A stretch of 64,000 nt of DNA from a virus (IMGVR_UViG_3300002515_000003:96001-160000), one strand, 5' to 3'; shown: positions 2,722 to 63,520, numbered from the stretch's first letter. Notes: generated by a model from the letters alone, not told the origin. A program made the numbers and translations.

Positions 2722-2800
2722 ATGAAAAGTAAATTTTATTGGGAAATCTTTAGTCACAAACCCACTAATAGCACCATTCTTGAAATAGTAAAATCGGTTA
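2722..2800. repeat. Dispersed element copy 1: 6-N6-6 palindrome plus ATAGCACCATT box
   Basis: ATGAAA-agtaaa-TTTTAT, then ATAGCACCATTCT 28 bp downstream; matches copies at 20287 and 35174. Confidence 0.6.
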
Positions 2801-2920
2801 AATTTAACAAAATTACTAAAAATTAATTAATATTGGTAAAATCTTAATAAAATTTAATTAAATAAGTTAAATTAAGAAAGGAATTAAATTATGTATATAA
2901 ACAAAATAATACAAACGACA

Positions 2921-2995
2921 ATAAAAGAAAGACACATTTTCATGCATCTATCTCCAATGATATAGATATCCTCTTTATAACGGTAGATATCTATA
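2921..2995 (-). ncRNA. Putative ~75-nt sRNA (copy A)
   Basis: TTGACA(3029-3024)-17-TATTAT promoter; stem ATAGATATC/GATATCTAT; terminator AGATGCAT-GAAA-ATGTGTCT plus U-rich tail. Confidence 0.55.
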
Positions 2996-3224
2996 TATTA
3001 ATAATATAGCAATAATACATAAATGTCAAGTAAATAATATAAAATAATGAAAGGATTATGAAGGTAGGAATTAATTTTCTATCTTATTTTGTTATGCAAA
3101 AAATTAATGTGGTTTGAGTTTCAGGGTTCGAAGTCTAATTCTCTGTAATTAATAGAAGTTTACCTATAAAAATTTCTATTCCCATATTCAAAAATAAGTT
3201 TCCTAATAGGAGGAATAAATAATA

Positions 3225-4058
3225 ATGAAAATAAATGAAGTCAATAAAGAAGATAATATAAATGTAGAAACGAAAATATGTAGAAAATGTGGTAAGGAAT
3301 TAGAACTTGATAAGTTTTGTAAAAGTAAGGGAAATAAAGATGGTTTGAGTTCTCAATGTAAAGAGTGTGATAAATTAAGAAATAAAGAATATTATAAAGC
3401 TAATAAAGAAGCAATATTGAAACAAAGTAACGATTATTATAAAAACAATAGAGAAAATGTATTAGAGAATAGAAAACAGCATTATGAAATTAATAAAGAT
3501 GTAGTGTTAGAACAGTGCCATATCTATTATGAACAAAATAAGGATGATATATTAATAAAAAATAAGATATACAAGGATAAAAATAGAGATATTATAAAAA
3601 TAAAAAACGAAAAATATAGCAAAGAACATAGAAGTATACTAGCAGAAAAATCAAAACAATATAGAATAATTATGAAAGATGATGCTCATTTTAAATCTAG
3701 GAGAGTATTAGAATCTCAATTAAGAAGAGCAAGAAAACTTGCGTTACCTGCTACATTTACAATTAAACAATGGGAAGAATGTAAAACTCACTTTAATAAT
3801 AAGTGTGCATATTGTAATAAAGAATTACCACTTGAACAAGAACATCTCCTAGCGTTAACTAAAGGAGGTTCATATACTTCTTATAATATTATACCTGCAT
3901 GTAAAACTTGTAATTGCTCAAAGAATGATAAGGATTTGAATATATGGTATCCAAAACAATCCTTTTATGACAAAGATAGAGAAACATACATATTAGAATA
4001 TTTAGAATCTATGAAAGAAAATTCTATTGAAGAAGAGAAAATCTTATCTATAATTTAA
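3225..4058 (+). CDS. HNH homing endonuclease with N-terminal Zn ribbon
   Basis: CRKC..CKEC; CAYC...EQEHLL..KGG...NIIPACKTCNCSK. Confidence 0.88.
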   Translation: MKINEVNKEDNINVETKICRKCGKELELDKFCKSKGNKDGLSSQCKECDKLRNKEYYKANKEAILKQSNDYYKNNRENVLENRKQHYEINKDVVLEQCHIYYEQNKDDILIKNKIYKDKNRDIIKIKNEKYSKEHRSILAEKSKQYRIIMKDDAHFKSRRVLESQLRRARKLALPATFTIKQWEECKTHFNNKCAYCNKELPLEQEHLLALTKGGSYTSYNIIPACKTCNCSKNDKDLNIWYPKQSFYDKDRETYILEYLESMKENSIEEEKILSII

Positions 4059-4402
4059 TGTTTTTATAATATCGCAAACAATATGTTATTAATAAAAGGA
4101 CGTGATGCCTATTGAATATTGAGTAATCATAATAATAATGAATCAACAGTTAACTGTTATTAGTTTTATAAAAGTTAATTTATATAAAATAATGTTGAGA
4201 AAGACAGGTGAAGACTTATCTGGTGGTGGTTATTACTTCTTAAAAATAGCCCTATAACAGTATAACAAAAATATAAACTCTAATGCGACTTTAATAAACG
4301 TGTTAGAGTTTATTAATTTAAATGTATTAAGTAATATAAATAAACTATATACAATTATAGTAATTTGCCAATATAATAATAAAAAAACTTTGGAGGTGTG
4401 AT

Positions 4403-6545: not shown

Positions 6546-8528
6546 TTACAATAAATCTTTTTTGCCTTCTTTTGCATAATAATTTAAGAAAGTTTGTTCA
6601 TTATCTTCAGATAAGATGTTGTTAAATGTCTCAGGTTTAATATTACAATTCTCAATAATTTTATTTATGGTTTTTACTCCTGAATTTGTTGTACCACAAT
6701 TTTTTCTTGTAAAATGAAACCATTTTCTAGAAAAATAAACATTGCCGATATTTTGAATAGTTGTGTATCTTTCAAAAAAGTTAAGTATTACATCTCCATT
6801 TTTACTGCTTTTTGAAACTATATCAACTAATAAATTATTTCTAATATAATCTTTATCAGTATCAAATATATTAATATTATTTTTCAAACTATATCTAGAA
6901 CAATAAATCTTATGCCATAAACCTTTGTTATTTTTAATTGAAAATGTCGTTACTTCTTTAAATTTTAAAGTAGTGTTCCCTTCAATATATTCCCTTGCTA
7001 AATTAAAAGATTTTAAATCGATATTGTGGATAAATAAGTTTGAATTATCTTTTAATGTTGCTTCGCTAAGTAATATTATAGATTTCTCCCATTCATCAAA
7101 TGTTTCTATTTTAGAGTTTAATATTATTAAATCAATCCCATCTTTATAAGCCTCTTTAATATTATCTCCAATAAATCTAACAAACTTTTCATCAAAATTA
7201 ATATTTGAATTATTAACTATTATTGGTTTTTCTAACACAACGTCTATAGGTTTGATTATCTTCTTTTTAATATCAATTTTCTTTATAATTTTAACTCCAA
7301 ATGTTTTAGGTTTATTTTCAGGTTTCTCTATTCCATTAACACCAATATCTCTTACATATTTATATTCGCTAATATCATTATAACACATGTCGAAATATTC
7401 ATATGCAACGTCAGGGTGTTTTCCTGCATATTCAAAATAGTATCTCTTATTAGAATACAATTTAGTCTTACCGTTTACTTTTTCATCGGATGTTTGCATC
7501 CTATTTACCCATTCTACAAATGAATATTTAACTATTGTGCCTTTTTGATTACACCAACTTGCTAAAGCAACATACATTCCATAATATGGTTTAGGTGCTG
7601 ATTTGAAGTTTTTATATCTCATTATATAAGGGAATATATTATGCTTCATGCAAATTTTAATTCTTTCAAGTGTATTTTCGATGTCTCTTGCATAAAATTC
7701 TTCATCATAATGAGTATTCTCGTCATATCCACATAATACGTACATACTAGTGTGTTTATGATAATGTTTTCTCCATAATTTAAGTTTTTCTTCGATAATT
7801 GATTTTTGTGAAATATCATCGAATGCGAAGTACAAACTATTAATATTTAGATTACTTTTAACTAAAACTTCTGCTTTTTCTTCTGTCAACATTCTAATAT
7901 CTAATCCTTGTTTGAACTCATAAGATTTTCCAAGAGAGTTCAACTCAATGAAGATAGATTCCCAATTCTCATATGCAAGAATATTATCATCTAACAAACA
8001 GATATTACGTTTATCTATATTAAAGAATTCTTTGATAGGAGAAGCCTTTTCTACTTTCGCACAGTGTTTATTAATACAGAATCCACATTGTCTCACACAA
8101 CCTCTAGTGGTATATCCCATACTATACATCTCATAATATCTAAACTCCTTATCAGGCGAACCATTAGCTTTCTGTTCAGCAATCCAATCGTCATACAAAT
8201 GGTAATCAGGCATGTGGTGCTCGATACAAGGTGATAAAGATTCTGCATCTGAAAAATAAAATCCGCTTCCTCCATATAATACCATGTCCATAGTTAGTAA
8301 TTTTTGTGGGATACTCGTTTCTACAAATACTTTTGAGACATATATTTTATCATATTTCTTTTTAAAATTCACAATATTGTGGTTCAGAAATTTATCGGGA
8401 TTAAGGTCTGTAATTAAAGTTACATCATCTCCAAGTGATTTATGATATCCACTTATTTTCATACTAGCAAGGTTAGGAAATCTGTGCCTTGGTCTCAGAA
8501 GTTCTGCGTCAACTATTCCAACTCTCAT
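6546..8528 (-). CDS. Radical SAM protein with C-terminal degenerate N6/N4 DNA-methyltransferase-like domain
   Basis: FPNLASMKIS N-terminus, TRGCVRQCGFC (CxxxCxxC); C-terminal IDLII and SSKNGDVILNFF resemble a beta-class MTase lacking DPPY and FxGxG. Confidence 0.8.
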   Translation of the reverse strand: MRVGIVDAELLRPRHRFPNLASMKISGYHKSLGDDVTLITDLNPDKFLNHNIVNFKKKYDKIYVSKVFVETSIPQKLLTMDMVLYGGSGFYFSDAESLSPCIEHHMPDYHLYDDWIAEQKANGSPDKEFRYYEMYSMGYTTRGCVRQCGFCINKHCAKVEKASPIKEFFNIDKRNICLLDDNILAYENWESIFIELNSLGKSYEFKQGLDIRMLTEEKAEVLVKSNLNINSLYFAFDDISQKSIIEEKLKLWRKHYHKHTSMYVLCGYDENTHYDEEFYARDIENTLERIKICMKHNIFPYIMRYKNFKSAPKPYYGMYVALASWCNQKGTIVKYSFVEWVNRMQTSDEKVNGKTKLYSNKRYYFEYAGKHPDVAYEYFDMCYNDISEYKYVRDIGVNGIEKPENKPKTFGVKIIKKIDIKKKIIKPIDVVLEKPIIVNNSNINFDEKFVRFIGDNIKEAYKDGIDLIILNSKIETFDEWEKSIILLSEATLKDNSNLFIHNIDLKSFNLAREYIEGNTTLKFKEVTTFSIKNNKGLWHKIYCSRYSLKNNINIFDTDKDYIRNNLLVDIVSKSSKNGDVILNFFERYTTIQNIGNVYFSRKWFHFTRKNCGTTNSGVKTINKIIENCNIKPETFNNILSEDNEQTFLNYYAKEGKKDLL

Positions 8529-13366: not shown

Positions 13367-14482
13367 TTATTTTATGCTTATGTATTTTTCGATTCCATTT
13401 TCTTTAATGTCTTCATATATCTCTTTGTATTTTTCTTTTAATATTTCAAATCGTGGAGAAAATTCTTTATAATAATATAATTCATATATTTCTCTATGAT
13501 AAACAGCTTCTTCATAAGTTTTAAAACTTCCTACACACCCACTATTATTTTTAACTTGTTGCATGATTTTTTCAGATAAATAAGCAACCCAAGGCTTAAA
13601 TTTTCTTCTTTTGCTATCATAAAACACACCTATACATCCTGAACTATTATATTGTTCTATGTCTATTTTATCAAAACTATTTTCTAATTGTGTGCATAAA
13701 AGTAAATTACTTATTCTATTATCAGTAATTATATGGTTCTTATGATGTACCACCTTATCTTTAGGAGCATTTAATAAAAATCTATGTAGGAACACTGTCT
13801 TTTTATTTATCCAACCACAAACATATCCACTACTACTTAATCTCCATTTATATTGTTTTACTCTTTCGGCATCTTCTAAAGATATTTGAGTATAAGCATG
13901 TGGTATATAATTGATATTATATAATGTTATTTCTGCATATGAGTTATGATATTTTATTTCTAAGTCATCATATCTATTTCTGTCAGGCACAAACCCATGT
14001 TTTTTATTAATATAATAATGATTTTTACAAAATCCTGTAGCAAAAGCCTTGTCGTTACATCCATCTACTTTACATTTTATTCCTTCTGTTAAATGTCTAT
14101 TATGATATTCACAATAACCTTTAGCGTGATAAATACTGTCACATCCATCAATATTACATATTCTTTGACCTTTTTCATTTTTTACAATTAAATTATTATT
14201 TGTATCAAATTTATATAATCCTTTTCTTATGCATTTGTAACAAATATATTTACCATCATGTTTTAGTGTGTTTTTAATATAATTTTTGTAACTAATAGTA
14301 TCATTTTTATTTTCACAGTTTGGATTATCACAAATTACATCAATATACATTCCTTTATTCATCAAATCATCGATATTTATTTCAAACTCATCACCATGTT
14401 TTGTAAATTTATATCCCTTTTCTTCATACCATTTTCTATTAGCACCGTTCCATTTTATTTGTAGTGTCTTAGTTATTATCAT
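13367..14482 (-). CDS. HNH/AP2-type homing endonuclease
   Basis: LHRFLL...VHHKNH...DNRISNL; SGCIGVFYD...WVAY...GSFKTYEEA AP2-like tail. Confidence 0.85.
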   Translation of the reverse strand: MIITKTLQIKWNGANRKWYEEKGYKFTKHGDEFEINIDDLMNKGMYIDVICDNPNCENKNDTISYKNYIKNTLKHDGKYICYKCIRKGLYKFDTNNNLIVKNEKGQRICNIDGCDSIYHAKGYCEYHNRHLTEGIKCKVDGCNDKAFATGFCKNHYYINKKHGFVPDRNRYDDLEIKYHNSYAEITLYNINYIPHAYTQISLEDAERVKQYKWRLSSSGYVCGWINKKTVFLHRFLLNAPKDKVVHHKNHIITDNRISNLLLCTQLENSFDKIDIEQYNSSGCIGVFYDSKRRKFKPWVAYLSEKIMQQVKNNSGCVGSFKTYEEAVYHREIYELYYYKEFSPRFEILKEKYKEIYEDIKENGIEKYISIK

Positions 14483-16600: not shown

Positions 16601-19600
16601 CTTCTGTTATAGAATTTTCTATTTCTACTAAACTTATATATTCATATTTATTATCCATATTACAAATAAATTTAAAATCTATTGGTTCGCCTTGAAATAT
16701 ATTTAACCCCCTTTTACAATAGCTCAAAATAGGACATTCTTTAAAAATACACGAGCATAATTTCGCCATATTTACATCTCTCCTTTATATATAATTTTAT
16801 ATTATTTACTTATTCTATTTTTTCGGTACTACTCCTGTATCTAAGAACTCTTTAAATCCATCTACAACTTGTTTGTCAGTGTCAATAAGTTTACCATGCA
16901 AATATATTTCTCCATTATGTTCAAATCTTAGAATTTCTTTGAAATTACCTGTTATTATCATTAGTGATTCGTCTTTATTGGCATTAAAATTAATTATATT
17001 ATCATTTAGTGGAATTTCTAATGCCTCACATTTTATTACTTTATAAAATTCAGCATCTTCTTTTGATTGACATGCTTTTATTAATCCTTTTGCTAATTCT
17101 AAATCCATTAATATCACTCCTTCGTATTAATTATATTACTTCAATCCAATATCCCTTCTCAAAATAATCCTCAACTTGACTAGTAGGATAATCTTCTTCC
17201 ATTAATTCTTCTCCCTCAAGCCAAGTAATATATGTAATTTCAGGATTATTTATATCTTGAGTTGCTAGATAATCAAAATCCTTTTCTTCATCATACTCTA
17301 CAAGTTCTTTATTTAAATGAAATAATATATGTTCTGTCATTTTTATTCAACTCTCCTTTATTTATATTTTAGGTAATTTCTTAGCCCATTTTAACAATTC
17401 TATATTTGCTAGTAATATTAATTTGTAAAGCTTCTCTTCTTTATTTTTATATTTATCTACTGTATATGTATTTTCAGATGATAGAACTCCAAAACTATTT
17501 TCTATAGTTGTATGATTATCATCGTCATATTTAATGGAAAATCCTTTTGGAATAGTTTCAAAAGTTATTCTCTCTGCAAATCTTATATAACAGTAAGGTA
17601 GTTCATCGTAATAATGTCCTGCACAACAATTGTCACTTATATAGCCCTTCTTATTAAGTTCCATTATAATTGGTAGCATTAACTCATCCACTTCAATTAT
17701 CTTGCCATAGCAGTTATTTTTAGGACACATTAACCAATGTTTATCGTCATATGGAATAGATTTAATTTCTTTTATAGAATCTCTGTATATTTGATTACAT
17801 TTTAAACAAAAATTAGCCATTTATATTATCTCCTTCTGCTATTTGACATACTACTTTAAAATATGCTTGTAATAAATCATTCGCTTCTACTTTAAACATA
17901 AAATCTTCTTTAAAGAAATTATTATTATCTATAAATTCCCAACAAGTAATTTGATAAACATAACTACCTTCAACGGTTTTGCTATCACAAGATATATCTA
18001 TTTTACTATTTGATTTTTCTTCTATAAATTCTCTTAATTGAGTTTCTGTTAATAGAGGAATTATGTCGTCAATATATTGTATATTCCAACTATCTATAGA
18101 TGCACTTGGGCTTCTCCATTCACGCAAAGAGTCTTTATGTCTTAAATCAACAGTTACTATTTCGTACTTATCTACTTTTATAACTATATATTTTTGTCTT
18201 TCTTCGTTTCTTTTTCTATAAAATAAATCATATTGTTCAATATTGTTCTTCCACCAATCTATTAAAGTTTCTTGTACTTCTTCTGATTGTTTTAAAAATT
18301 GTTCTACTGTTATGTATCTCATTAGTTACACTCCTCTTATTTTATATTATTTTAATACTTCTAACTCAACTCGTTTTAATAAATCTATCATGTAATCATA
18401 ACTTCCTTCGCTTTCATAATCACCTTTTATTGATTCTAGTGATTTTTGAAGTGATTTAACTATATTCATTGCTCCTTGATTATAACCATCTTTAAATTGT
18501 TGTACCATTAGTTCTCTTAAATCTGTAGAAATTTGTTCTTGATTCATAATTGTTTAGCCTCCTATTTATTTTATATATTATTTTAATCTGATATTTCTTC
18601 TATTAATAAAACTAATAGAAACAATGCCCATAAACAACTTGCACTATGTAATAAAATAGCTACTAATCCTATAGCTAAACATCCTATACTTGATACAATT
18701 GCTTTATTACTAATTTTCATAACTTTCATTCTCCTTTTTTAATTCTTCTTTCAATCTTCTGTTTTCCATTTCTAAACTCCAAGAAGCTAACGTTATTGAT
18801 GTAAGCCATAACAATTGTGTTATTATTAATATAATAATTCCCAATATATTATTTGTAATAGTTCCTACCATCATAGCAATAATGAATGATGGTATAAAAC
18901 ATACTGAACCTAAAATTAATCCTATCAATTCTTTCTTACCTCTTATTTTAAACATGATTTTACTCCTCCTTTATCCTATATTATTTATAATTGTGTGTTC
19001 TTTTATAGATACAAATGCTGAGACTGGTTTTGAATGATGTTTTCTACCTTCAACAATATTCTCTGCTATTTCCCTATTTGGAGCACAACTTTTACAAATA
19101 TATCTTCTAGTAAGTACTCCATTAATTTTAGGATTACTATCAAATTTCCACCCATTCTCTTTCTTAAATTCCTTATGACAAATACAACATTTATTCCAAA
19201 ATAATATTGTATTACATCTTTGTAAATTGTTACTGTTGCTTTTTGAATCTCTCTTCATAATTTAGTCCCCTTTTTTTATATATTTAATCAATCGCTTTAT
19301 TCAATACAAGACACTTTCTTCTATTCCAAAAACGCCACCATTTAGATGTTTTATATCTGGGGATTGCATTATAATAAATATGTATAATATTTTCACTGTT
19401 AAATAGTAATTCTTTATTATGATTAAGTAGATATTTGGAAGCGTCATTTACTGAAGTAATACATCCATCATATAAATAATTATTATAACTATCTAATATT
19501 CTATCAATGGACTTATTATAATATCCTTTGAATATACTTACATTCAAGTCAAATCCTTTATATATATATTTGTTTGATGTTTTGCTATATGATATACTCC

Positions 19601-36047: not shown

Positions 36048-36071
36048 ACTATTCCCCCCTAAAATTAATTA

Positions 36072-36536: not shown

Positions 36537-36623
36537 GATTTTTATTATCTCCTCTTATTTAAATATTTTATTATTTTGTTCTATATGATTGTGAATAAAA
36601 TTTGATTTTTAAATGGTTATGTA

Positions 36624-39414: not shown

Positions 39415-39426
39415 TTAAGAGGAACA

Positions 39427-40455: not shown

Positions 40456-40546
40456 AATATTCAGCCCCTTTTATTAATTTATGTAGATAGAAATTGTTTC
40501 GTTTAATATTTATTTTATATTTTTGTTATCTTAATCCTTATACCTT

Positions 40547-40575
40547 ATTATATGCAATTATTGGTAAAGTGTCAA
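40547..40575 (-). promoter_or_regulatory. Consensus sigmaA promoter of the Xer-like recombinase
   Basis: TTGACA-17-TATAAT. Confidence 0.75.
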
Positions 40576-40650
40576 TACTTATTACAAATATATTTTATAT
40601 TATTTTAAAGTTAATATAAAAACAATGAAACTGATGTTCTATTTACTAAT

Positions 40651-40929
40651 TTAATTGTATAAGCTTTTGTCAATTTCTGATATACTATTTGCATAAATAA
40701 ATCTACTAATAGATATATCCTTATTACTTTTTAATATTAATTCGTCAGTATATTTATTTTCGTAATATTTTAACCTATTAAGAAAACTATCTTTAGGATT
40801 AACGATTTTAGGATTGATTATTAATTCTTCATGTATTTTATTCTCATATTTTATTAAAATAACAATCCATTTTGTGTTGTTGATTTCTGCATCATTAAAA
40901 CATTTCTTTAACATTTCCATATTCCCCAT
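40651..40929 (-). CDS. Small phage hypothetical protein
   Basis: 92 aa; ELIINP..RLKYY..YTDELILK. Confidence 0.7.
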   Translation of the reverse strand: MGNMEMLKKCFNDAEINNTKWIVILIKYENKIHEELIINPKIVNPKDSFLNRLKYYENKYTDELILKSNKDISISRFIYANSISEIDKSLYN

Positions 40930-41030
40930 ACATAAATGCTCCTTTCTTTAAACTGGTTTTAAACCCTAATGCTATAATAAGACTTATAAGATTTAATTAC
41001 CTTTAAAGTAATTACTTTCCTACAAGTCTT

Positions 41031-43394: not shown

Positions 43395-43408
43395 CCCAAT
43401 TTATATTT

Positions 43409-46753: not shown

Positions 46754-46771
46754 ATCTATTATCTCCTCTTT

Positions 46772-47986: not shown

Positions 47987-48009
47987 ATTTCTAACTCCTT
48001 TTTATATTA

Positions 48010-49029: not shown

Positions 49030-49131
49030 AACTCTCCCTCCTAATACATATCGTATTTATTTTGTATTCTTTTATTGTATCACAACTTTATTATTATGTA
49101 TATGATTAACAATTAATTTTATATTATTATT

Positions 49132-50643
49132 TTACCAATCTGGATTAACAACGCATAATCCTACTTCAGAGTATATATTTCTCGAAAGGTCTACTTCCGT
49201 TACTATACAAAACTCATTAGAACGACCAAATCTATTTTTAACTAAAAATATCAATTGATAATGTTTGTCTAAATCCAATACAACTGGAAGTTTAGTTTTT
49301 TTGTTTTTACCACCTAATTTATATACTTTTAATTCATGCTTTTCACCTTCATATTCATCTGGTAGAACCCATCTTGTCATATAGCAACCACTTGCCACGT
49401 CTGCTACGTTCTTAGCTCCTGATATAGATTCCATTGTTAAGCATCTTTGCTTAACCGATTGCTTTGTCAATTGCATTGTACATAATAAACATACATTTCT
49501 TGCACTTGGCTTAATTAAATCATATAGCTTAACAGAATTCATTTGTAGTTCCAACCAATTATTATCACCTGCTTTTGATGTAGCATCGTATTTGAAGGTA
49601 TCAATAATATAGTATACTACTCCCATTGATGAGTATTTTTTTATTATTTTCATAGCTTTATCTGTCGTATAACTTTCTAAAGGTACAATATAAATTTGTT
49701 TATTATGCTCTTTTAACCATACAGCAGATTTTTTTAATTTATCCATATCTTCTTTACTAAAGTTTCCATTATTAATCTTATATTTCTGAAAATCCATCTT
49801 ATAAATGTTATTGGCTACCCATACTAATAATTCGGCTTTAGTTTTTTTATGGTCTTCTTCATTTATCATTATACATATTTTTTCACCTTTTTCTAATATA
49901 CTAGGCAGAATTAAACTCCTACAAAATGAACTTTTACCTGTTCCACTACTTCCTAATAACAAATAAAAGTTACCCCTATTTAAGCCATTTACTTCTGCAT
50001 TAAAGATAGGCATATCATAATAAGGTAAACCAATTGAACTTCCCTCATTAAGTTCTTGTATAAGGTCTTCTAACCCCTCTGATACATCGTAACTCTTATC
50101 TTCGCCTTCTGCATTTATAAATATATGATTAAACACGGCGTCATACTCGTCATATATGTCAGATGTTTTCATGTCAACAAAATCTTTTAATCTGTGTGCT
50201 ATTGGAAATTTTGCTTTAGCTAAACTTATAACCGTATTCCACTTCGTTAGTTCTTGTATATATCCATCAATATTTTCAACTTTTACATAAGTTTTAGCTA
50301 ATTCTATGATTTCATATCCACCGTATTCTATATATTTTTCTCTTAGTTTTGGATGTTTTTCTAAGTATAAATTTATAGTAATTTCATCTAACACAGTTTT
50401 ATTTTCTTTTACCATTAATGCGTTCCCAATAGCAAAATATACTTTCCATTCATTATGTAAAAAAGAAGATACGGTAAGTTTATCATAGTCATAAAATAAA
50501 TCTGGTTGCTTAAATAATATAGATACGATATTACTTTCACATATCTTTTTATATTCTCTTATTTGCTTTAAAGCCTTTATTTCTGCTTCGCTAAAATCAG
50601 GTTTATCTTTTTTTATTGCCATAATGCATCTCCTTTTTACCAC
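49132..50643 (-). CDS. dnaB: DnaB-like replicative helicase
   Basis: GSSGTGKS, INEE, IIDTFK, TMQL, VKNRFG. Confidence 0.9.
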   Translation of the reverse strand: MVKRRCIMAIKKDKPDFSEAEIKALKQIREYKKICESNIVSILFKQPDLFYDYDKLTVSSFLHNEWKVYFAIGNALMVKENKTVLDEITINLYLEKHPKLREKYIEYGGYEIIELAKTYVKVENIDGYIQELTKWNTVISLAKAKFPIAHRLKDFVDMKTSDIYDEYDAVFNHIFINAEGEDKSYDVSEGLEDLIQELNEGSSIGLPYYDMPIFNAEVNGLNRGNFYLLLGSSGTGKSSFCRSLILPSILEKGEKICIMINEEDHKKTKAELLVWVANNIYKMDFQKYKINNGNFSKEDMDKLKKSAVWLKEHNKQIYIVPLESYTTDKAMKIIKKYSSMGVVYYIIDTFKYDATSKAGDNNWLELQMNSVKLYDLIKPSARNVCLLCTMQLTKQSVKQRCLTMESISGAKNVADVASGCYMTRWVLPDEYEGEKHELKVYKLGGKNKKTKLPVVLDLDKHYQLIFLVKNRFGRSNEFCIVTEVDLSRNIYSEVGLCVVNPDW

Positions 50644-51098
50644 AATCCATTTAATCTGTCATTTTTAATTTCTTTAGTCTTTTTTTTATAAATCGCCTTG
50701 CCATCGTCAACATTAACTTCAACTTTTGAACCTTGTATTTTAGCCTTTTCAACTCTATTCATTTTATCAACTACATCATTAATTTTATTTTCAATTATTA
50801 CCATCATATAGTTAAATTTATGTCCTTCATTCTGAAAAACTCTTTCATTATTTTTAAATCCATTAATTATCTCGAATTTATATAATTTAAAAGTGGTTGA
50901 TATTTGTTTATAAGTATAATGTGCTAAAGGTTTTGTACGTTTATTTGCCATGAATTTTCCTTGTGAAAGACCTTTGAGCCGAAGAACTAAATTTTTAGGC
51001 AAGTTTTTATCAGTATATCCCAATACACTTCTTTTTACATACTCATATAATTCATTCCATTCTTCAATTTCTTGTTTTGTCATACTTTCGCTTTCCAT
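50637..51098 (-). CDS. Replication-module hypothetical protein
   Basis: 153 aa between helicase and ATPase, as in SPbeta-like replication blocks. Confidence 0.7.
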   Translation of the reverse strand: MESESMTKQEIEEWNELYEYVKRSVLGYTDKNLPKNLVLRLKGLSQGKFMANKRTKPLAHYTYKQISTTFKLYKFEIINGFKNNERVFQNEGHKFNYMMVIIENKINDVVDKMNRVEKAKIQGSKVEVNVDDGKAIYKKKTKEIKNDRLNGLW

Positions 51099-51172
51099 AT
51101 ATTTATCACCTCTTAAAATTAAAAATATAAGGACAGAATTAATCCATCCTTATTAAGTTGTATATTATTATT

Positions 51173-52138
51173 TTATTTTAATGTTTTAAGAAAACTAATT
51201 AATTGTTTTAAAACATCAACATCAGTTGTATCTAATTGCTTTACATCTATGTTTAATTCACTTAATTTATCTTTAACAGTATTAGTTTTATCCTTATCGG
51301 CTCTATTTTCTTTTAAGAATGATATAATTTCTAAGCCTAATTCATGTGATAATTCTGCATTGTTTAAAACACCTTTTACTGAATCTTTTAAGTTTTTAGA
51401 ATAATTAGCATCCATAGTTTTACCTGATTTTCTTTCTTCAAAAACGGGTTTCCATATATCAAAAGTGCAATTTTCTATTATCGCTCCTACTTTTGTAGCG
51501 TGAGTTCTATCTTTTACTACTTCTGCAAAATATTTTATGTCCTTAGTTTTTTTATCCATTTCTGTGTAAAATCTAAGAATAACATCATAATCAAAAGGTA
51601 GTTGTTTATGAACATCTGGCTTATATCCTATAACTACATTTTTATCGTCTGTTAAATCTAAACCCTGAGCAGTTGATACTATATGTATACCTTTAGCCGA
51701 TGCAGTTATTTTTGCTTGTTGTAGCTTCATACTTATATTTTTTATTCTTGACCACTTGGCTCTTGCATCTACCGCTTTACCATTAGTTCTTGCTTTTTTC
51801 TCTTCTACTTCAGTAGCACTAATGTCCATTGTGTTATAAAACTTAGTTTCACTATCTATCATCAAGGTTTCTACGCCTTCAACGTCTCCTTCTATAATAG
51901 CATCTAAAGATTCTTCTAATTCGTCTAAGTCTGATGTGTTATTTACTAAAAGTAGATTGTTATAAGTTTTACCACCTATAACAATATCTTTGCCTTCATC
52001 AAATGCTAATCCTGCCTCAGAATCTATGCAGGCTATGGAGGGACATGAAAGTCCAAACCAGCTCTTACCTTCATGTGTTTTACCAAATACTAAAAATTTA
52101 CCACCTATTCTTGTTGTTTGTGCTTTTCTAAATCCCAT
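51173..52138 (-). CDS. AAA_24/Sak4-like ATPase
   Basis: GKTHEGKS, IDSE, MIDSET, FDYDV, KDRT. Confidence 0.82.
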   Translation of the reverse strand: MGFRKAQTTRIGGKFLVFGKTHEGKSWFGLSCPSIACIDSEAGLAFDEGKDIVIGGKTYNNLLLVNNTSDLDELEESLDAIIEGDVEGVETLMIDSETKFYNTMDISATEVEEKKARTNGKAVDARAKWSRIKNISMKLQQAKITASAKGIHIVSTAQGLDLTDDKNVVIGYKPDVHKQLPFDYDVILRFYTEMDKKTKDIKYFAEVVKDRTHATKVGAIIENCTFDIWKPVFEERKSGKTMDANYSKNLKDSVKGVLNNAELSHELGLEIISFLKENRADKDKTNTVKDKLSELNIDVKQLDTTDVDVLKQLISFLKTLK

Positions 52139-52238
52139 TAATAATTCCTCCTCTAAATATATTTATGATTTAACTTTATATTTTTTTATATTATTATATT
52201 AATAAGGGGAATTGCACCCCTATTTATGTATTTTTATA

Positions 52239-53525
52239 TTATAAATCTGATAACCAATCTTCGTCCTCATCATCATCTTTACTGTCATCTTTTAATGCTT
52301 CGTCTAAATCCTTATCCTCTTTATCACTTGTTTGTTCGTCCTTCTTTTCCTCTTTATCCTCAACAATAACCTCTTCTTTATTGTCTTGTTTAACAGGTAC
52401 TAATGCACCAATTATCATAAGTGGATTAACATCATCTTCCTCATAAGCATCTATAACTTTATCTATAGAAGGCATTTTTACATCCTCACCAATATATTTA
52501 ATATGAGGCTTACTTATTACCATTGTTTCAGGTTTCTTACCACCATTTTTTAATGCAATTTGACCTAAAATTTCATCTTTATCTATGTAACCTAAATCTA
52601 TTAATTCTTTAATGTCATCTGGAATATCATCTTCTGTAACTGAAACAGTGTTTAAATCACCTTTTGTAAAATAGCCATCTACAGTTAATTGAGTTAATTT
52701 CTTACCTTTTACTTTAAATACTCTTAACATTTTTTTAACTTGCTCCATATCTTCGCCCATTTTGAAATCAAGTGTTTTTACTATTGGTAAATTAGTTCCT
52801 TGTTTAGTTTTACCTTTAACAAGATGTCTTATAACTTTGCCATCAAATTCTTTCATATAATCTACTACTAATCCTGTAATTGGTACTGTCATAGTTTCTT
52901 TGTCTGGTTTTCCTATAGAGTCTGAGTCTAATATAATAGATTGTGTAAAGGATGCTCTGAAATCTTTGTACTCAGCCTTTGATAATACTAATGATGTAAT
53001 TTCTTTCTTAACTTGTATTGCATCATTGTATCTTGAATACTTTAAATCGCCTTTGACATTAACCACAGTACCATCTTGTAAGTTTTCTTCAGCATATTTA
53101 ATACCATCATAAGCTGATAAGAATTTCTTATATTCAACTTTATCATTTTCTTTAGTTAATCCTACTGTAAAGAAGTTTCTATCTCCACAAGAAGCTACTA
53201 TCTCTTCGTCAAATCTATCTTCCCAATCAATAGTGAAAAAGTTTTTAAAATCATCTACATCAAACCCTGCTTCATTTTTCTTCTTACCATGTACCATAAT
53301 TTTATTTTGTCTTTCTGTGCCATAACCAGACATTACATCAGCATAAATCATTCCATTGTCTCCGCAATCTACTGCTAAGTTCATGTGATTATATACCCAA
53401 TCAGAATCCTCTTTTTTACTTTCCATATCTATTTTAAATGTAAAGTCTGAAACTTTAGCTTTTCCTACTAAATTAAATGATGCAGTACCTTTTTTTAATT
53501 GTGTTAAAACTACTTCCTTAGCCAT
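52239..53525 (-). CDS. Putative single-stranded DNA-binding protein
   Basis: OB-like VNVKGDLKY, acidic tail ending DEDWLSDL; position in replication block. Confidence 0.65.
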   Translation of the reverse strand: MAKEVVLTQLKKGTASFNLVGKAKVSDFTFKIDMESKKEDSDWVYNHMNLAVDCGDNGMIYADVMSGYGTERQNKIMVHGKKKNEAGFDVDDFKNFFTIDWEDRFDEEIVASCGDRNFFTVGLTKENDKVEYKKFLSAYDGIKYAEENLQDGTVVNVKGDLKYSRYNDAIQVKKEITSLVLSKAEYKDFRASFTQSIILDSDSIGKPDKETMTVPITGLVVDYMKEFDGKVIRHLVKGKTKQGTNLPIVKTLDFKMGEDMEQVKKMLRVFKVKGKKLTQLTVDGYFTKGDLNTVSVTEDDIPDDIKELIDLGYIDKDEILGQIALKNGGKKPETMVISKPHIKYIGEDVKMPSIDKVIDAYEEDDVNPLMIIGALVPVKQDNKEEVIVEDKEEKKDEQTSDKEDKDLDEALKDDSKDDDEDEDWLSDL

Positions 53526-53636
53526 ATGTATATACTCCTTCTGCGTTAGTCGCCACTAAATTATTGTATTATTGATTTTATATTATATTGGTTTTAATGG
53601 ATTTCTGAATCAAATAGATTTTCTATTGTCTTTACA

Positions 53637-54976: not shown

Positions 54977-55713
54977 ATCAATATTGTCTCCTTTTTATGT
55001 ACTGTTAATTTATTTTATCTAAATACCTTCTTGTATTTTTGATAATTTTATTTAGCTCATCTCTTTCTGAATAAGTTATTCCTGCATTTGTTCTAATATT
55101 TTTTAAACAATCTAGTAGATTTTCTAGATATGTATTTGTTACTGTAATTTTATTCAAAGATTCTCTCTCCTTTTGCTTTTGAATTATCAATTAACAATTA
55201 TAAAAAAATCTTTATTTCTACAATATACACCTTCGCCAGTATTAACCTCATAAACAGTATCATATTCAAATATAACATCATAAATATCACCTTCAATAAG
55301 ATTAAAACCAGTAAATAAAGCCTTAACTTTCATATTCAACACTCTCCTTTATATCATTTTAATAACTGAATAGAAGTTCAATTTGATTCAGTTTATTTTA
55401 TTTAATCTTCCTCTTTTTCAAACTCATCTACAATGTCAAACACTCTCCCACATATAGGACATTTGCAATCATAAATTGATACATAATTTTCATTTGTTTC
55501 ATATTCTTCTTTAGGTTCAAATACTTTAAATATATTACGTGTTTTACAATAAGGACATGCCTCAGATGTTGTCATACTCCCACCAAAATAATTATTTGGA
55601 GTAGGATTATTTATTGAGTATATAGTATGAATCTTTTGATAAAACTCTTCTTTAATCGGTGTTATAGTAATCATTATTTATCTCTCCTTTATGTAATTAT
55701 TTCTTATTCTTTT

Positions 55714-57213: not shown

Positions 57214-60200
57214 TTATAATCCAAATATATCTTTACTTATTTTTCTTCCTTCTTTCATTCCATCTCTATAAGCTTTATCCACACATTCATTATGATTTTC
57301 AATAATATAATTAATAAATTCTTTATCAAGATTATCCACTATTCCAATTACTTTCAATAATTCATTATCATATAAAACCCTGTGCATATCATTATTAATA
57401 TTTATTATTTTCTGACTCCAACCCATATTAATCTTCCTCTTCAATATCAAAATAATATCTTTCAAAAGGTAAAACTTCATATATTTTATGTTCAGATAAT
57501 TGTCTACTTAAATCTTGAAAATCAATTTCAGATACACATATATTTTCATCCTCAACATACTTTTGATTTATATTTGCCATTATATTAACTAATTCCTTAT
57601 GTGAGTAATTCTCAATTGTAGAAAATATATGTGTAGTATAATACTTGTAATAAGCATCGTCTTGTAAATGTGTTTCTACTTTAACTTCAATTAATTGTAT
57701 TCCATTCATACTAATCCTCCCTCACAAACCATCTACCCTTAGTAGTAATCTCTTGTAAATCTTTATCACATATACAACCTAATATAGCAAACAGTGTCGA
57801 AATACTGATATATTTACCTTGTTGTAGAGCTTTTAGTCCCTCTGTTATAAATCCATTAAAAGGAACAAAATAATCATCTAAATATTCATGTTCAACTTTT
57901 ATTTCTTTTCCACTTGTAATAGCTGTTATAAAAGCAACTGATTTATCTTCAAGTTTGATAAACTTCTTTAGTAAGAAACTCGGTGTATTGTCTTTAACTT
58001 CTTCCCATATATTATTATGTATAAATTTTAATTTACCACATATTAATGCATATTCTAGCTTCTGAGTTTTAACATCTATAAAATGGCATTTTGTGTCTTT
58101 CATTTCTTGAGTTGCCTCTACTAAATTATATTCTTTTGGTTTTTCTATATCATCAAACCATTCGTAGACATTAATTTTATACTTTTCAGTTTCTATTAAT
58201 TTAACGCTATGACTTATACCACCAGAATTTAATACATTTAATGAAATTCCATTCACTGTGCATACGCCAGAATAATTTTCTTTATCAGTTTGAGTCCAAC
58301 AATCACCTACACAATCCACATAAACTTTTTTACCTTCTATATCCTTTAAATTATTTATAGTTAATAAGTTACCTCTCATAATAATTATCTCCCCTTTAAA
58401 TTTTTTATATTAATTATTCTTCTGTCCTATCATAGTGTTGCCATTTCATTAATTGATTTGTAAATATTAATACTTTATCTCTTAATATATCTATGAGTTC
58501 TTCTTCAGTTTCTACACTTTCATCGTTTTCAGTATTATAAATACTTGTTCCTGCAAATGAAATATTATCAACATAACATCCATAATTATAATCAAAATAG
58601 AATAAAGCATTTGATGTTTCTTCACATATTTCATTATTCAATATATCAACGACATTTATATAATTTTGCGATTTCATAATTAATCTCTTTTAATATTTGT
58701 TAATAGTTTTCTCTTTTCTATTTATATCGTCAATTAAATATTGCAATTCTTGTATAACTGCATCATATTTTTCAGGGTCTCCATCGTCATACCATCCTCT
58801 CTCCATTATTTGATTTTTCTTGTTCTGTTCGATTCTTAAATATAAATATTTTTTCAATTCTTCAATGTTTATAGATTTATTAATCTTCAATTTGCTATCA
58901 CTCCTTTTTATATTTTTATACTTTCGAATAAAACACAAACTTTATTGACTTATTATGTTAACAATAAAACGTTATTTTTCTCTATTAGAATAACAATTTC
59001 TATCTTTTAATAGACAATATTTATTTTTATAAAGAAAACTACATTTGGTTGGTAATTGATTGCATTTTGTGAATTTACACTTTATAGCAGTACAGAAATT
59101 GACAATCGGATTTCTTATAAATATATACCATAAATTACTAACTGATGGACATTCTTTTTCACAATGACTATAACAATATTCAAAATCATTGTGATGTTTG
59201 CAAAATACAAAATTGAATTTTTGATTCATAATTTGACAATCCTCCTTAAATTTATTGTGCTACCATATTTTTGCAGTAACCTATTAACTACTTTCTAAAT
59301 TTGATTGCCATTTTCTTTTTTCTGAAAAACTCTCACAATGTCCATTTCTTATTTCTATTTCTGTCACAACACAACCACTCTCACCATTGTTATAATCGCA
59401 ACCACATGAATTACAAATTATGGCATGGTCTGTCTTTTCTAATATTTCATTTTTAGATTTTACAAACTCTAATGCTAGTTTATAGGTGTCTAGCTCATCT
59501 AGCAGATATTTAAACTCAAGTTCTTTTAAACATTGATTGTATGCTTCTATTTGCCCTGTTCTTGCATTTGAAGTAGCAGTTATTCCACTATCTATTATTG
59601 TTAAAGTAACTATAAAAAAACGATTGTTATATTCATCATATTTGCTTTTAGTTTCAATTTTAATGGTTTCTGGTTTTATTAAGTCGCTTTTATTTTTCTC
59701 CATATCATTCTCCTTTTATATTTATATTATTATATTTGTCTCATTTCGATTACACTTGCCATTGGAATTATTTCTAATGATCCATTATCTTTTCTCAAGA
59801 AAAATCTACCTGTGAATGGATTATCATAATTTATTAATGTTCCTACAACAGTTTCTATGTATTTACCATTTGCAGTAGATTCTTTATAACTTCCACCTTT
59901 GAAATAATTAATTGTATATTTCTTTTCACAACCTAATAAGAAATCTTCTTCTATTTCTTCATTTAACATCTTATTTATATTATCTCTTACATTCATTAGT
60001 TCATCTTTATTAAATTTCATTTGTGATTGTTTATATTCTCCTATATCTCTACCTCTGCCATCTTGCCTTAAAGAAATTATAAAACTCCTATCACCAACTC
60101 CTCTAAGACTATTTATTTTATATTCTGCTAAAAACAAAGTTACTTTTCCAATATTAAATTTGCCATTATGAATATTGTATTGTGTTAATCCTTTATATTC

Positions 60201-62025
60201 CTTGCTAAAATTAACTCTTGGTTTGCCATTATCACCTATTTTATAATTCGTTTCCACATGTATCGTTCTCCTTTATATTTATATTATTATATTTTATCTT
60301 CAATAGACAACACGTTGCCTTTTAATGGACATTTACCATTATAACTTTCAACAATTTCATTCACAAAAATAGGTTCTTCTTTAATAGTGCAAAAGGATGA
60401 TTTTCTGGTTATATTAATTACTCCACTTAATTTATCTGTACTTTGAATATCTTCGTAAAACATATTTTCTCTCCTGAATGGACATGATGAACAGCTTTCT
60501 ACTTTATATTGTAATTTAATTTTATATTCATACATTTATGCAACCTCCTTTATTTATATTATTTTATTATTAAACACACCATCCACAGATAATTTCTCCA
60601 CATGCAGGACAAGTACAAGCGTAACATGCATCTGAATATTCTTTAAATTGTATATTATTATCTGGAATATTTTCTTTTACTTTATGCCATGTTTCGCAAG
60701 CAATATCACAATTCCAATCTGCATTAGGATAATCTTTATTTATTTTCCCTACTTCTTTATCACAGTATTTACACATATATTATTCCTCCTCTAATTGTTT
60801 AACTAATTCAATTAATTCATTTTCTACATATTCAGTTGTTCTGATTTCTCCACCTGTGTAAAATCTTCTTTCCATATCAACCATTGTGTTATAAGTTTTT
60901 TCATCACTTAATTCTCTTATAAGTTCTAAATCTTTTCCATCATTGTAATGACCACAATCAAATCCAATCCAACTTCTTTCATCTTGTACTGGATATCCCG
61001 TATCATCACCTGCATATGTAAGTCCACCATGTACTTCTACATCTATCTCGTCATAACCTTTATCTTCGTCTTTATGTCCTTTTGGTAATCCTACATATCC
61101 ACATCTATGTCCCATTGATAACCCTAAGATTACACATCTGTAATCACCTATTATAAAATCCTTTTCTACTTTAAAATCACTCATTAATAATTCCTCCTAA
61201 ACTTTATTTTTTTATTTATTTGTTAATTCCATTATAATCCACAGTTTAATTATTGTCAACATATATTTTATATTATTATGATATTAATCTAAATATCTAT
61301 AAATTCAGTATTTCAATTAGTTATGACAAACTATTTTTGAAATGCATAGTTAATCTATCTCTTTAAAACTAATAACTGAACTTCCGTATACACAATTAGT
61401 TTTAATGTCTTGAAACAACTTATTTACTCGTCTGCATACAATTTTAACCTCATTTCCACCGACAATAACTTCATATAACTTTTCATTTTTATACACTTTA
61501 ATCCCACCTTATTTATTTCACAATATTTTTGAAAATTCAGTTATAGTTTCTTTGAAATGTGAATCAATCTTTATAAACAACTTGATTAAAAGATAACTTT
61601 CCATGTCTATATACTTCATATTCGTACAAATCACTATCTAATTTTATGTTTTTAACTTGTATTAAATTTAATATCAAAAGTATCTTTCCTTTTAATTTAA
61701 AAGTTCCCCATATTTCTTTAGGAATCTTACTTTTATAGAACATATAAAACCCTCCTTAAATGGTATGTCGGCATCGATTTAAAACCTTAAACATCTATAT
61801 CCATCCATTAATTTTTAATTTGTTTTTATGAACTCTATATTTACCTTTGTTACTAACTATTATATCTACTGCACATAATCCACCTTTACTAATAAATTCT
61901 TTACCCATCCAATCTAAGAAAGTTAATAACTCTCGTTCTTCTTTTGGAAACTCTTTGACAGATATAGTTAATATTTCATCTTTAAATCCTAATATTTTTG
62001 CTTCTGATTTAATCATTTTTAACAT
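57214..62025 (-). other. Cluster of small hypothetical ORFs
   Basis: Co-oriented ORFs of 68-222 aa, several Cys-rich; promoter TTGACA-17-TATAAT at 61259-61231. Confidence 0.7.
60780..61184 (-). CDS. Conserved phage protein of unknown function
   Basis: GHRCGYV..VHGGLTY..WIGFDCGH motif set. Confidence 0.75.
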   Translation of the reverse strand: MSDFKVEKDFIIGDYRCVILGLSMGHRCGYVGLPKGHKDEDKGYDEIDVEVHGGLTYAGDDTGYPVQDERSWIGFDCGHYNDGKDLELIRELSDEKTYNTMVDMERRFYTGGEIRTTEYVENELIELVKQLEEE

Positions 62026-62055
62026 CTCCTTGTAAACTTATTTTTCTATTTTATA

Positions 62056-62940
62056 TTATTGTATTAACGCTACATTTAATAATTTTTCTATGTATATATT
62101 TAATTTTTTCTTCTTATCTTCAGTACCTAAACAACTCAAGGGGTTTCCTTTAATATCTTTACTCCATAGTTCAAAATGAAAGTTTCCTCCTGTACTATTT
62201 TTTATTCTTTTAATTAAATATGGTAATATTATTTTAAATTCTTCATATTGTTTATAGTCTTCATTAATCCACTTATGTATTTTATCTAATTTTTCTTGTA
62301 TAAAAAATATTTGTTTTGAATACCATACTTCCATATTATCTTTATGCTTAGAAGTATTGCATATTCTACAACTTGGAACGCAATTACTTAAATTTCCTTC
62401 CCCTTCACAATTTACATGCTCCTTGTGTAACTGTTGATTATATTTTATCTTATGGTCTTTCTCGTCTATTCCACAATATGCACAACTGTTACCAAAATAT
62501 TGTTTGCAATCAATCCATTCTTGTTTGCTTATGTCATGCTTTTTATTAGAATATTCTTCATTGCTTAGTTTTAATTTTTCAGGATTATTCTTTTGCCAAT
62601 TACTTAGTCTTTGTTTATATATTTCTTTATTTCTAATGTGCTCAAGCATATGCCAGTTCTTTAAATATTCTTTATGCTCACTTCTATACACCTTACTATT
62701 TTCATTGTTTTTTCCAGGATTAGCTTTATTCCATTTCTGGAATTTATCAATACTACATTGTTTACAATATGGATGTAGTCCATCGGAATGATTAGATTTA
62801 TTCTTATAAAAATATTCTTCTGTACATGGAAACCACTCTTCACATATATTGCATTGTTTTAATAATATACCATTATCGTCTATTTTATGCTTTAGATTAT
62901 AAAGGTATATTTGCCTTTCTTCTTTTTTTAATATTTTCAC
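62056..62940 (-). CDS. HNH homing endonuclease, same architecture as 3225-4058
   Basis: CNIC..CKQC; CAYC..HKEHV..NCVPSCRICNTSK. Confidence 0.87.
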   Translation of the reverse strand: MKILKKEERQIYLYNLKHKIDDNGILLKQCNICEEWFPCTEEYFYKNKSNHSDGLHPYCKQCSIDKFQKWNKANPGKNNENSKVYRSEHKEYLKNWHMLEHIRNKEIYKQRLSNWQKNNPEKLKLSNEEYSNKKHDISKQEWIDCKQYFGNSCAYCGIDEKDHKIKYNQQLHKEHVNCEGEGNLSNCVPSCRICNTSKHKDNMEVWYSKQIFFIQEKLDKIHKWINEDYKQYEEFKIILPYLIKRIKNSTGGNFHFELWSKDIKGNPLSCLGTEDKKKKLNIYIEKLLNVALIQ

Positions 62941-63274
62941 CTCTACTATTATATATTATTTTAGTTGTATATTTCTGATTCAAATGAACTTTTTATTGTG
63001 TCAAAATATTTTTGAAATGTTCGATTACTACCCTTTTACTTCCTCAACACTTTCTACTTCAACTCTACAACGACTTCTTAATCTTGCATATATATCATTG
63101 CATTCAGATTGTGCGATTTCTTTTGCTTCTTCAATATCTCTTGCACTATATACTCCACCAACATCAGAAACATTTATTGTTATTTTATAATCTTTCATCT
63201 TTAATAATTCCACCTTTCTTATTTCACACTTTCTCAAAGTTCAACAATCACTTTAAAACGAACCTTTTAACTAG

Positions 63275-63470
63275 TCATAATAATTCTAATTTTTGTAGTG
63301 ATTCTTGCAGTCCATTTCTACAAGAGTCAATTAAAAAGTCTATAGTAGATTCTCCTAAAATAGTAGACTTTTCTTTGTTTTTTTTTAGCCTCTAATTCAT
63401 TCAACTCTTCTTTATAGTATTTAATCATGTTTACAACATTAATTACTTTATTTGCCTTAGCCATATCCAT
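63275..63470 (-). pseudogene. Small ORF apparently frameshifted at an A9 run
   Basis: MDMAKANK..EA then A9 (63378-63386); with A8 the frame runs on to ..QKLELL*. Confidence 0.5.
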
Positions 63471-63520
63471 ACTAATATCCCCCCTCCCAACTTTCGCAAT
63501 AAAACAATTCTTTTAACAAC

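Follow-up and report, generated by a model that had tools for sequence, protein, structure and literature searches.

The stretch of DNA analysed here, referred to as the window, comprises 64,000 nucleotides corresponding to bases 96001–160000 of a 195,571-bp IMG/VR virus record (IMGVR_UViG_3300002515_000003), and its subject is a short imperfect palindrome, WTVAAA-N6-TTYTAW, that recurs at gene junctions. The G+C content of the window is 24–30% and that of the whole phage genome (195 kb, here designated G000) about 26%; the only public sequencing run found to contain it, a DNA run from a peat metagenome, may be the source of the phage. No RNA run was found, and comparison with the DNA run gave short pieces of low identity and one joint with a 22-letter side. 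According to genome-wide calls of open reading frames (ORFs), obtained with a crude longest-ORF caller and without a trained gene finder, the first 100 kb or so has its genes on the plus strand and the remainder has them on the minus strand. The window holds the replication and early region together with genes of nucleotide metabolism, encoding a topoisomerase II, a NAD-dependent ligase, NrdD, a RecD-like helicase, DnaE, an exonuclease, a primase, a DnaB-like helicase and an SSB-like protein, as well as three HNH endonucleases, a TGT/DpdA-like protein with QueT, and two tyrosine recombinases. The genes to which the palindromes are related below are:

1711–2715, plus strand: recombinase 1, a divergent tyrosine recombinase (Pfam Phage_integrase, 2.5e-8)
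39427–40455, minus strand: recombinase 2, XerC/XerD-like (Pfam, 2e-35; PDB XerC-like 4a8e, 3.7e-24, and XerD 1a0p, 8e-24)
41097–53525, minus strand: replication module of eight genes, from SSB-like to RecD-like helicase, including DnaE, primase and DnaB-like helicase

The copies of the palindrome in the window are the following, with ribosome-binding site abbreviated as RBS:

2722–2739, no strand assigned: palindrome 6 nt past the stop codon of recombinase 1; read on the minus strand, it closes a composite with a AATGGTGCTAT box at the downstream end
20287–20304, minus strand: palindrome with sense strand ATAGAA-N6-TTTTAT; downstream end of a AATGGGGCTAT composite, 38 nt upstream of a 54-aa ORF
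35174–35191, minus strand: palindrome at the downstream end of its composite, 32 nt upstream of ORF 34612–35142; lower boundary of the TGT/DpdA-like gene and QueT
36595–36612, no strand assigned: palindrome with perfect core, 11 nt past the stop of ORF 36624–37079; upper boundary of QueT and the TGT/DpdA-like gene
37309–37326, minus strand: near-copy, one arm base off, 1 nt past the stop of ORF 37328–38260, with an RBS-like sequence within 12 nt
40625–40642, minus strand: palindrome 8 nt past the stop of ORF 40651–40929, 170 bp upstream of recombinase 2; distal end of the replication module
53601–53626, minus strand: 26-nt copy with 0 mismatches to ATARAA-N6-TTTNAWTCAGAAAT, 10 nt past the upstream stop and 76–84 nt upstream of the SSB-like gene
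55367–55390, no strand assigned: copy whose 8-nt outer arms are perfect (AACTGAAT ... ATTCAGTT) and which can be read in either orientation, 14 nt past the stop of ORF 55402–55674
58928–58945, minus strand: near-copy, right arm one base off, between ORFs 58972–59229 and 58690–58938
62971–62996, minus strand: 26-nt copy with 0 mismatches, 31 nt upstream of HNH endonuclease gene 62056–62940
63253–63270, no strand assigned: palindrome with perfect core, between minus-strand ORFs 63327–63470 and 63028–63237
63499–63516, no strand assigned: palindrome with perfect core, 4 nt past the stop of ORF 63521–63964 and 8–11 nt before the strong RBS of ORF 63327–63470

These twelve sites had been reported in an earlier note on this DNA and each was found in place. 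Ten fit WTVAAA-N6-TTYTAW exactly, and the other two, 37309 (left arm ATAAAT) and 58928 (right arm CTTTAT), depart from it by one arm base. The surroundings described in that note were likewise borne out: 6 nt separate the stop codon of recombinase 1 from site 2722, site 40625 lies 170 bp upstream of recombinase 2, the interval between 35174 and 36595 encloses the TGT/DpdA-like gene and QueT only, and the intervals between 62979 (within the copy at 62971–62996), 63253 and 63499 enclose the small minus-strand ORFs 63028–63237 and 63327–63470. The spacers do differ between the window copies. A plus-strand ORF at 63012–63395 (127 aa) is probably spurious, as the two minus-strand ORFs, both with good ribosome-binding sites, occupy its space; for annotation, the motif marks true gene junctions and exposes spurious ORFs of this kind.

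The pattern also matches within long ORFs at seven further places (12176, 13670, 25364, 27502, 38228, 45302 and 54692), and the background expectation was set by shuffling. Over the whole window, 20 strand-matches at 17 positions compare with 6.3 ± 2.9 expected, and none of 100 dinucleotide shuffles reached 20. Since intergenic DNA is richer in A+T, intergenic and coding segments were then shuffled separately. Under this control the intergenic DNA of the window holds 8 matches against 0.63 ± 0.76, a count reached by none of 300 shuffles, and the ORFs hold 9 against 4.28. For the intergenic DNA of the whole genome the figures are 11 and 1.97, with a small excess in the part beyond the window (3 matches where about 1.3 are expected), from which it follows that the degenerate consensus has in part been fitted to the window. 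A control that is independent of base composition is provided by a spacer scan, in which the arms were held fixed and the spacer was varied from 0 to 16 in intergenic DNA. Eight matches occur at spacer 6 in the window and 0–1 at each other spacer, and the whole G000 genome gives 12 at spacer 6 against 0–5 elsewhere. The motif is therefore confirmed as a real, spacing-constrained junction element, with the consensus ~caATARAA-N6-TTTNATtca in sense orientation in this phage. For the whole family, chance can largely be set aside, but individual weak sites, for example 37309, 58928 and 2722, may be chance matches.

The nearest named relatives by DnaE are the Clostridioides phages LIBA6276 and LIBA2945 (66% identity), and the best DnaE relative overall is 73% identical. 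Phages of the LIBA6276/phiCD211 type are described as big plasmid-like siphophages of C. difficile of about 130 kb (PMC5786514). A megablast search of window positions 34000–41000 against phages returned zero matches, relatives of the SSB-like protein at up to 60% identity were found in viral and metagenome contigs and none in genome contigs, and no real relative of the TGT/DpdA-like protein was found in IMG/VR by peptide patterns. A 130-kb IMG/VR relative, G001, has an SSB-like protein 55% identical to that of G000.

The palindrome recurs in these relatives in a sharper form. Counted as WTAAAA-N6-TTTTAW, with the reversed pattern as control, perfect copies number 19 in LIBA6276 (control 0), 26 in AR1086-1 (control 1), 25 in phiCD211 (control 2), 21 in ES-S-0107-01 (control 2) and 13 in G001 (control 2), compared with 4 in this phage (control 3). 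When the spacer of the core TAAAA-Nk-TTTTA is varied, the relatives show a sharp maximum at k=6, with counts of 19, 26 and 14 compared with roughly 0–12 at other spacings. With looser arms in intergenic DNA, spacer 6 yields 12 matches in G000, 14 in G001, 18 in LIBA6276 and 19 in AR1086-1, while other spacers yield 0–7; the same peak is seen in a contig of a Clostridium metagenome-assembled genome (9 against 0–2) and in a C. rectalis contig (6 against 0–4). The element is an 18–24-bp inverted repeat with conserved arms and a fixed 6-bp gap. Its arms are conserved as sequence and consist of A and T throughout, even in a relative with 31% GC, whereas the spacer is variable. The window sites are therefore a diverged, weaker local form of this lineage-wide palindrome TAAAA-N6-TTTTA. 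The word stem 'palindrom' is absent from the main texts of two comparative papers on Clostridioides phages (PMC5786514, PMC12671070), whose supplements fall outside this statement and may bear on the point.

The position of the palindrome relative to genes is narrowly defined in four Clostridioides phages, where the median distance from stop codon to site ranges from -4 to 10.5 nt and the stop codon lies within the left arm at 5/16, 8/20, 7/21 and 9/17 co-directional junctions. The median distance from site to next start is 14–21 nt, and the right arm therefore abuts the RBS. Of the ten co-directional sites in G000, six lie no more than 14 nt past a stop; to the next start the median is 72 nt, and a TATAAA-containing box is found 7–38 nt downstream at 10 of 16 sites, at no fixed spacing. 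The palindromes are concentrated among the small early genes, which vary, and where the conserved replication module begins and ends. This module is syntenic in four relatives, G001 and contigs L170 and L171 among them, and in G000, G001 and L171 it carries a palindrome at each end and no intergenic palindrome inside.

The earlier note had proposed that gene gain and loss break at the sites, within the N6 spacer. As no close relative of this phage is present in the collections, breakpoints were examined in the Clostridioides phages. A comparison of LIBA6276 with AR1086-1 defined 26 homology blocks (at least 300 bp and 88% identity). Over the whole genome of LIBA6276, a block end falls at 7/17 junctions with a palindrome and 25/161 others (one-sided Fisher p=0.016), and in AR1086-1 at 8/19 and 27/167 (p=0.012). 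Furthermore, 143 pairwise events over the six pairs of four genomes include 33 indels and 107 replacements; a boundary lies within 10 bp of a palindrome in 15 of the 33 indels, 12 of these on both sides, and in 23 of the 107 replacements. Where homology stops at a palindrome, it does so at its edge or inside an arm, not in the spacer. The first part of the proposal therefore stands in moderate form, breakpoints falling at sites more often than at other gene junctions in the relatives and less markedly so within the early region, and its second part does not.

Two loci illustrate these exchanges. In AR1086-1, a 4.4-kb block of seven hypothetical genes lies between two palindromes with different spacers. 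At the same locus LIBA6276 has a single site that combines the left flank of the first AR1086-1 palindrome with the spacer of the second, and in phiCD211 and ES-S-0107-01 the one site present bears the spacer of the first. The single-site forms carry either spacer, and crossovers have therefore occurred in different arms in different lineages. At the second locus, LIBA6276 has one palindrome and the other three phages have the same two, spaced by 6 nt in AR1086-1 and phiCD211 and by 171 nt in ES-S-0107-01. In LIBA6276, one insertion junction is unclean, with the right arm missing on one side.

It is quite possible, although short of probable, that the palindrome is a protein-recognised junction element, probably regulatory (a roadblock or operator), which doubles as a crossover point for module exchange. 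Because the arms are conserved as sequence, the spacer varies, and there is neither a consensus structure nor an Rfam match, recognition by a protein is favoured over a stable RNA hairpin, and the symmetry of the site favours, most simply, a dimer acting on DNA as its recogniser. In the mechanism envisaged, a dimeric sequence-specific phage protein would bind the palindrome and regulate or block transcription across gene junctions, in the manner of the stoperators or SPBRE sites of other phages. One short sequence present at many junctions would at the same time offer a crossover point for the gain, loss or swap of genes and modules, as do the PeSLs of T4-type phages. Such exchange would proceed without a dedicated enzyme, and the tyrosine recombinases would not be needed for it.

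Several observations weigh against this reading. The binding protein and its regulatory effect are both steps that we infer. In the G000 genome itself, the perfect core TAAAA-N6-TTTTA gives no peak at spacer 6 (5 copies, at background level), a position weight matrix built from the relatives' sites finds only 7 intergenic sites (1.1 expected), and a 9-N6-9 consensus shows no excess at up to 4 mismatches (24 against 23 for the reversed control). The sites do not overlap clear TTGACA/TATAAT promoters, which argues that they are not classical operators, and the TATAAA box downstream of them stands anywhere between 7 and 38 nt away. The breakpoint excess weakens within the early region, where a block end falls at 5/15 junctions with a palindrome and 17/89 without in LIBA6276 (p=0.18) and at 7/18 and 17/99 in AR1086-1 (p=0.043), so that the signal is partly regional. 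It could reflect general mosaicism of the early region, or be the work of a dedicated enzyme. The pairwise indel counts are not independent, the 15 events representing about seven distinct loci, and arms of 6–9 bp are short for homology-driven exchange. Overall, the association of breakpoints with the palindrome is moderate and not exclusive.

A dedicated enzyme is what a first alternative supposes, namely that the palindromes are core sites of a phage Xer-like tyrosine recombinase by which cassettes are inserted, excised or swapped in an integron-like array of small early genes. This is unlikely, although several features point towards it. The 6-N6-6 geometry is suggestive, tyrosine recombinases are encoded in 4/4 phages examined, and recombinase 2 is XerC/XerD-like. 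As the earlier note had it, both window recombinases appear intact, with R, H-x-x-R, H and Y in place when the two are aligned; a PDB sequence search with recombinase 1 gave no relative. A palindrome lies 6 nt past a recombinase stop codon in both G000 (2722) and G001 (48640), which is a hint and not a link to the recombinases. The 4.4-kb block of AR1086-1 and its single-site forms with either spacer suggest recurrent exchange on either side of the spacer, and the second locus fits the same picture, with tandem palindromes spaced by 6 nt in two phages and by 171 nt in a third, and a lone palindrome in the fourth. Moreover, the standard junction, with the stop codon in the left arm and the RBS after the right arm, would let an inserted gene be expressed. 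Against these points, the conserved arms measure only 6–9 bp, compared with 11–13 bp in Xer and Cre sites, and differing spacers normally block complete exchange by tyrosine recombinases. The insertion junction of LIBA6276 mentioned above is unclean, and 18 of the 33 indels and 84 of the 107 replacements have no palindrome within 10 bp. The link between the sites and the two recombinases drawn in the earlier note was not found: the recombinases of motif-bearing relatives are only 23–29% identical to these two, and in LIBA6276 and AR1086-1 the recombinase gene lies more than 2 kb from the closest palindrome. The alternatives offered in that note, module-shuffling sites or operators of a regulator, are partly supported: the spacing-constrained junction element, the breakpoint excess in relatives and the bracketing of the replication module speak for them, and the connection with the two recombinases is not supported. 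Were the palindromes recombinase sites after all, exchange would occur on one side of a non-identical spacer and be resolved by replication, and large clostridial phages and plasmid-prophages would possess an integron-like device in which a captured gene is expressed at once. A third tyrosine-recombinase-like ORF lies outside the window (genome 91057–91884, plus strand) and resembles recombinase 2 at 26% identity (E 1.2e-8).

A second alternative places the function in RNA, with the palindrome forming an A-U hairpin or a site for an RNA-binding protein between stop codon and RBS, where it would tune translation, coupling or processing. The tight placement between stop and RBS in the four phages (median 14–21 nt to the start) agrees with this, as does the orientation of the G000 sites, which follows the coding strand; in addition, arm mismatches on the sense strand, as read from the sequences, are often G opposite T, which would permit G-U pairing in RNA, although a G-T bias is to be expected in any case from how strongly the sense strand is GC-skewed. 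However, RNAalifold found no consensus pairs in 12 composite elements, the near-invariant arms leave no covariation, a stem of 5–8 bp made of A and T alone is very weak, and G-C pairs are absent even in the relative with 31% GC. Rfam at gathering thresholds gave nothing in the window, at permissive thresholds the composite element returned a chance-level snoRNA (E 0.11) as its sole match, and no tRNA or tmRNA was found. In G000 and G001 the site is often 30–170 nt from the RBS. Overall, a role in RNA appears distinctly improbable.

It is very improbable that most sites are AT-rich look-alikes, the only true repeats being the four long copies and the AATGGGGCTAT-composite copies as functionless leftovers of a duplicated intergenic segment: the consensus is degenerate and window-derived, in intergenic DNA elsewhere it exceeds expectation only slightly (3 matches, about 1.3 expected), G000 shows no enrichment of the perfect core (4 copies, control 3) and several sites belong to two longer repeat families, but the spacer scan (8 against 0–1 in the window, with the same arms peaking at spacer 6 in six independent relatives), the 300 segment-wise shuffles, none of which reached the observed count, and the equivalent module-edge sites in G000, G001 and L171 speak against it.

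If the palindrome is indeed a protein-recognised junction element, large clostridial phages and plasmid-prophages, including the 130-kb Clostridioides phages, would join their variable early genes by one standard junction of 18–20 bp. This would provide a testable handle on phage mosaicism at gene boundaries, which may depend on short conserved linkers, on a dedicated enzyme or on selection alone, and would point to a putative global regulator with dozens of sites per genome.

Some copies in this phage belong to longer forms. The shared flanks of the copies at 53601 and 62971, remarked on in the earlier note, are real and are explained by the 26-nt form ATARAA-N6-TTTNAWTCAGAAAT, of which the 195-kb genome contains four copies at 0–1 mismatch, all intergenic (window 53601 and 62971; genome 21403 and 164163). 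The exact 26-nt pattern matches 42 IMG/VR contigs once each, which is taken as chance, and the copy upstream of the SSB-like gene is not kept in relatives at 55–60% identity. In G001, a 22-nt pattern gives 11 matches at up to 2 mismatches against 4 for the control, with zero exact copies. A second sub-family comprises composites of about 65 nt that start with AATGGGGCTAT and end in the palindrome, located at window 2722 (minus strand), 20287 and 35174 and at genome 164163 and 173343. Their boxes are:

20332–20342, minus strand: AATGGGGCTAT box, conserved and non-coding, about 33 nt upstream of the palindrome
2768–2778, minus strand: variant AATGGGGCTAT box
35219–35229, minus strand: AATGGGGCTAT box
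genome 164218: AATGGGGCTAT box
genome 173398: AATGGGGCTAT box

In the form AATGGGGCTAT(NN)CTAG the box has five copies in this phage and 3–4 in G001, and AATGGGGCTAT is also present in other AT-rich IMG/VR contigs (L092, L093, L098 and L138). No Rfam family matches the composites, and no consensus structure is predicted for them. The palindrome and the AATGGGGCTAT element were also considered as sigma-70 promoter sequences, a reading set aside because no consistent -35/-10 spacing was apparent by eye. A likeness of the TTCAGAAA extension to the CodY box was likewise dropped, the best copy agreeing by eye at 10 of 15 positions.

A far more abundant dispersed motif, AATAATATAAAA, occurs genome-wide (for example at window positions 35145–35165, 40560–40580 and 53555–53575) and comes after many copies of the palindrome. 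As AATATAAA it is found 114 times in 21.8 kb of intergenic DNA, compared with 31 expected, and 128 of its 274 genome copies are intergenic. It is placed either directly 5' of TTGACA/TATAAT promoters or 5–30 nt ahead of an RBS, and may be a candidate phage-specific promoter element. With this box as anchor, no upstream element was found at a fixed distance. The relatives have ubiquitous boxes of their own, AATAAATTAA in G001 (39 intergenic copies) and TATAAACTAAATAA in LIBA6276 (about 11).

Other features of the region stand apart from the palindrome. The 5' leader of the SSB-like gene (53530–53560, minus strand) contains GTGGCGACTAACGCAGAAGGAG, nearly unchanged in L046 and L061 despite about 60% protein identity. 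By analogy it may be a translational operator, for which T4 gp32 offers a precedent. The TGT/DpdA-like gene and QueT form a pair at 35358–36536 (minus strand), and a radical-SAM protein is encoded at 6546–8528; no homologue was found in G001, LIBA6276 or AR1086-1, nor by peptide patterns in IMG/VR, and the two genes seem to be an accessory 7-deazaguanine-related pair confined to this phage. The HNH endonuclease genes are free-standing, at 3225–4058 (plus strand), 13367–14482 (minus strand) and 62056–62940 (minus strand), and two of them match phrog_1035. Outside the window, the structural region contains long intergenic gaps with shared sequence, at genome 19406–19610 (L179 207–411), 7248–7483, 33398–33760, 66331–67042 and 70790–71023, and positions 19361–19409 and 66795–66843 share 49 nt at 92% identity. 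A weak match to a Group I intron occurs in one of these gaps (28.3 bits, gathering score 50, E 1.4e-4), and the other four gave nothing at E 0.01.

The palindrome may be compared with several known systems. It resembles Xer, dif, pdif and attC sites in having inverted arms around a 6-bp centre, in flanking genes or modules and, as in attC, in lying just past the stop codon of the enclosed gene. It differs from Xer/dif sites in the shorter conserved arms (6–9 bp against 11–13 bp) and in having no match to the dif consensus; moreover, the identical or near-identical central regions of such sites are not seen, as the window copies and the pair flanking the 4.4-kb block of AR1086-1 differ in their spacers. 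In integrons, intI lies beside attI and the cassette promoter, and attC sites are about 60–140 bp long with paired inner and outer repeats. The sites described here measure 18–24 bp, show no attI, Pc or intI arrangement and form no array beginning beside a recombinase gene, and recombinase 2 has its best PDB matches in XerC/XerD, IntI4 scoring only 5e-9.

Among phage regulatory sites, the SPBRE of Bacillus phage SPbeta is a 15-bp element in about ten promoter regions that is bound by MrpR, a protein described as being without crucial catalytic residues (PMC10516654). The likeness lies in dispersed intergenic repeats within a large Firmicutes phage that also encodes proteins of the tyrosine-recombinase fold. 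The analogy with MrpR itself, suggested in the earlier note, fails in that both recombinases here keep R, H-x-x-R, H and Y. The sites lie after stop codons and not on recognisable promoters. The stoperators of cluster A mycobacteriophages are asymmetric 13-bp sites, read in one orientation relative to transcription, for a monomeric repressor with two DNA-binding domains (PMC9283540). The palindrome would be comparable to them in that dozens of copies of one short site lie outside promoters, where a bound protein would halt read-through; it is symmetric, which suggests a dimer, and the asymmetry that defines stoperators is thus not found. The PeSLs of T4-type phages combine a strong sigma-70-like promoter with an effective terminator stem-loop (PMC2839356), whereas the palindrome is an 18–24-bp element of A and T alone, with no G+C stem or predicted structure. 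In both cases a short conserved motif recurs where small non-essential genes of variable regions meet, indels and replacements between close relatives fall at the motif, and the genes between copies behave as exchangeable units (PMC2839356); for the palindrome, the coincidence of indel and replacement boundaries with the motif is seen in the relatives only. The full defining features of PeSLs, stoperators, SPBRE/MrpR, dif, pdif or attC are found in no case together. By analogy, the palindrome may work like stoperators or the SPBRE/MrpR system, and it would appear to work most like the PeSLs of T4.

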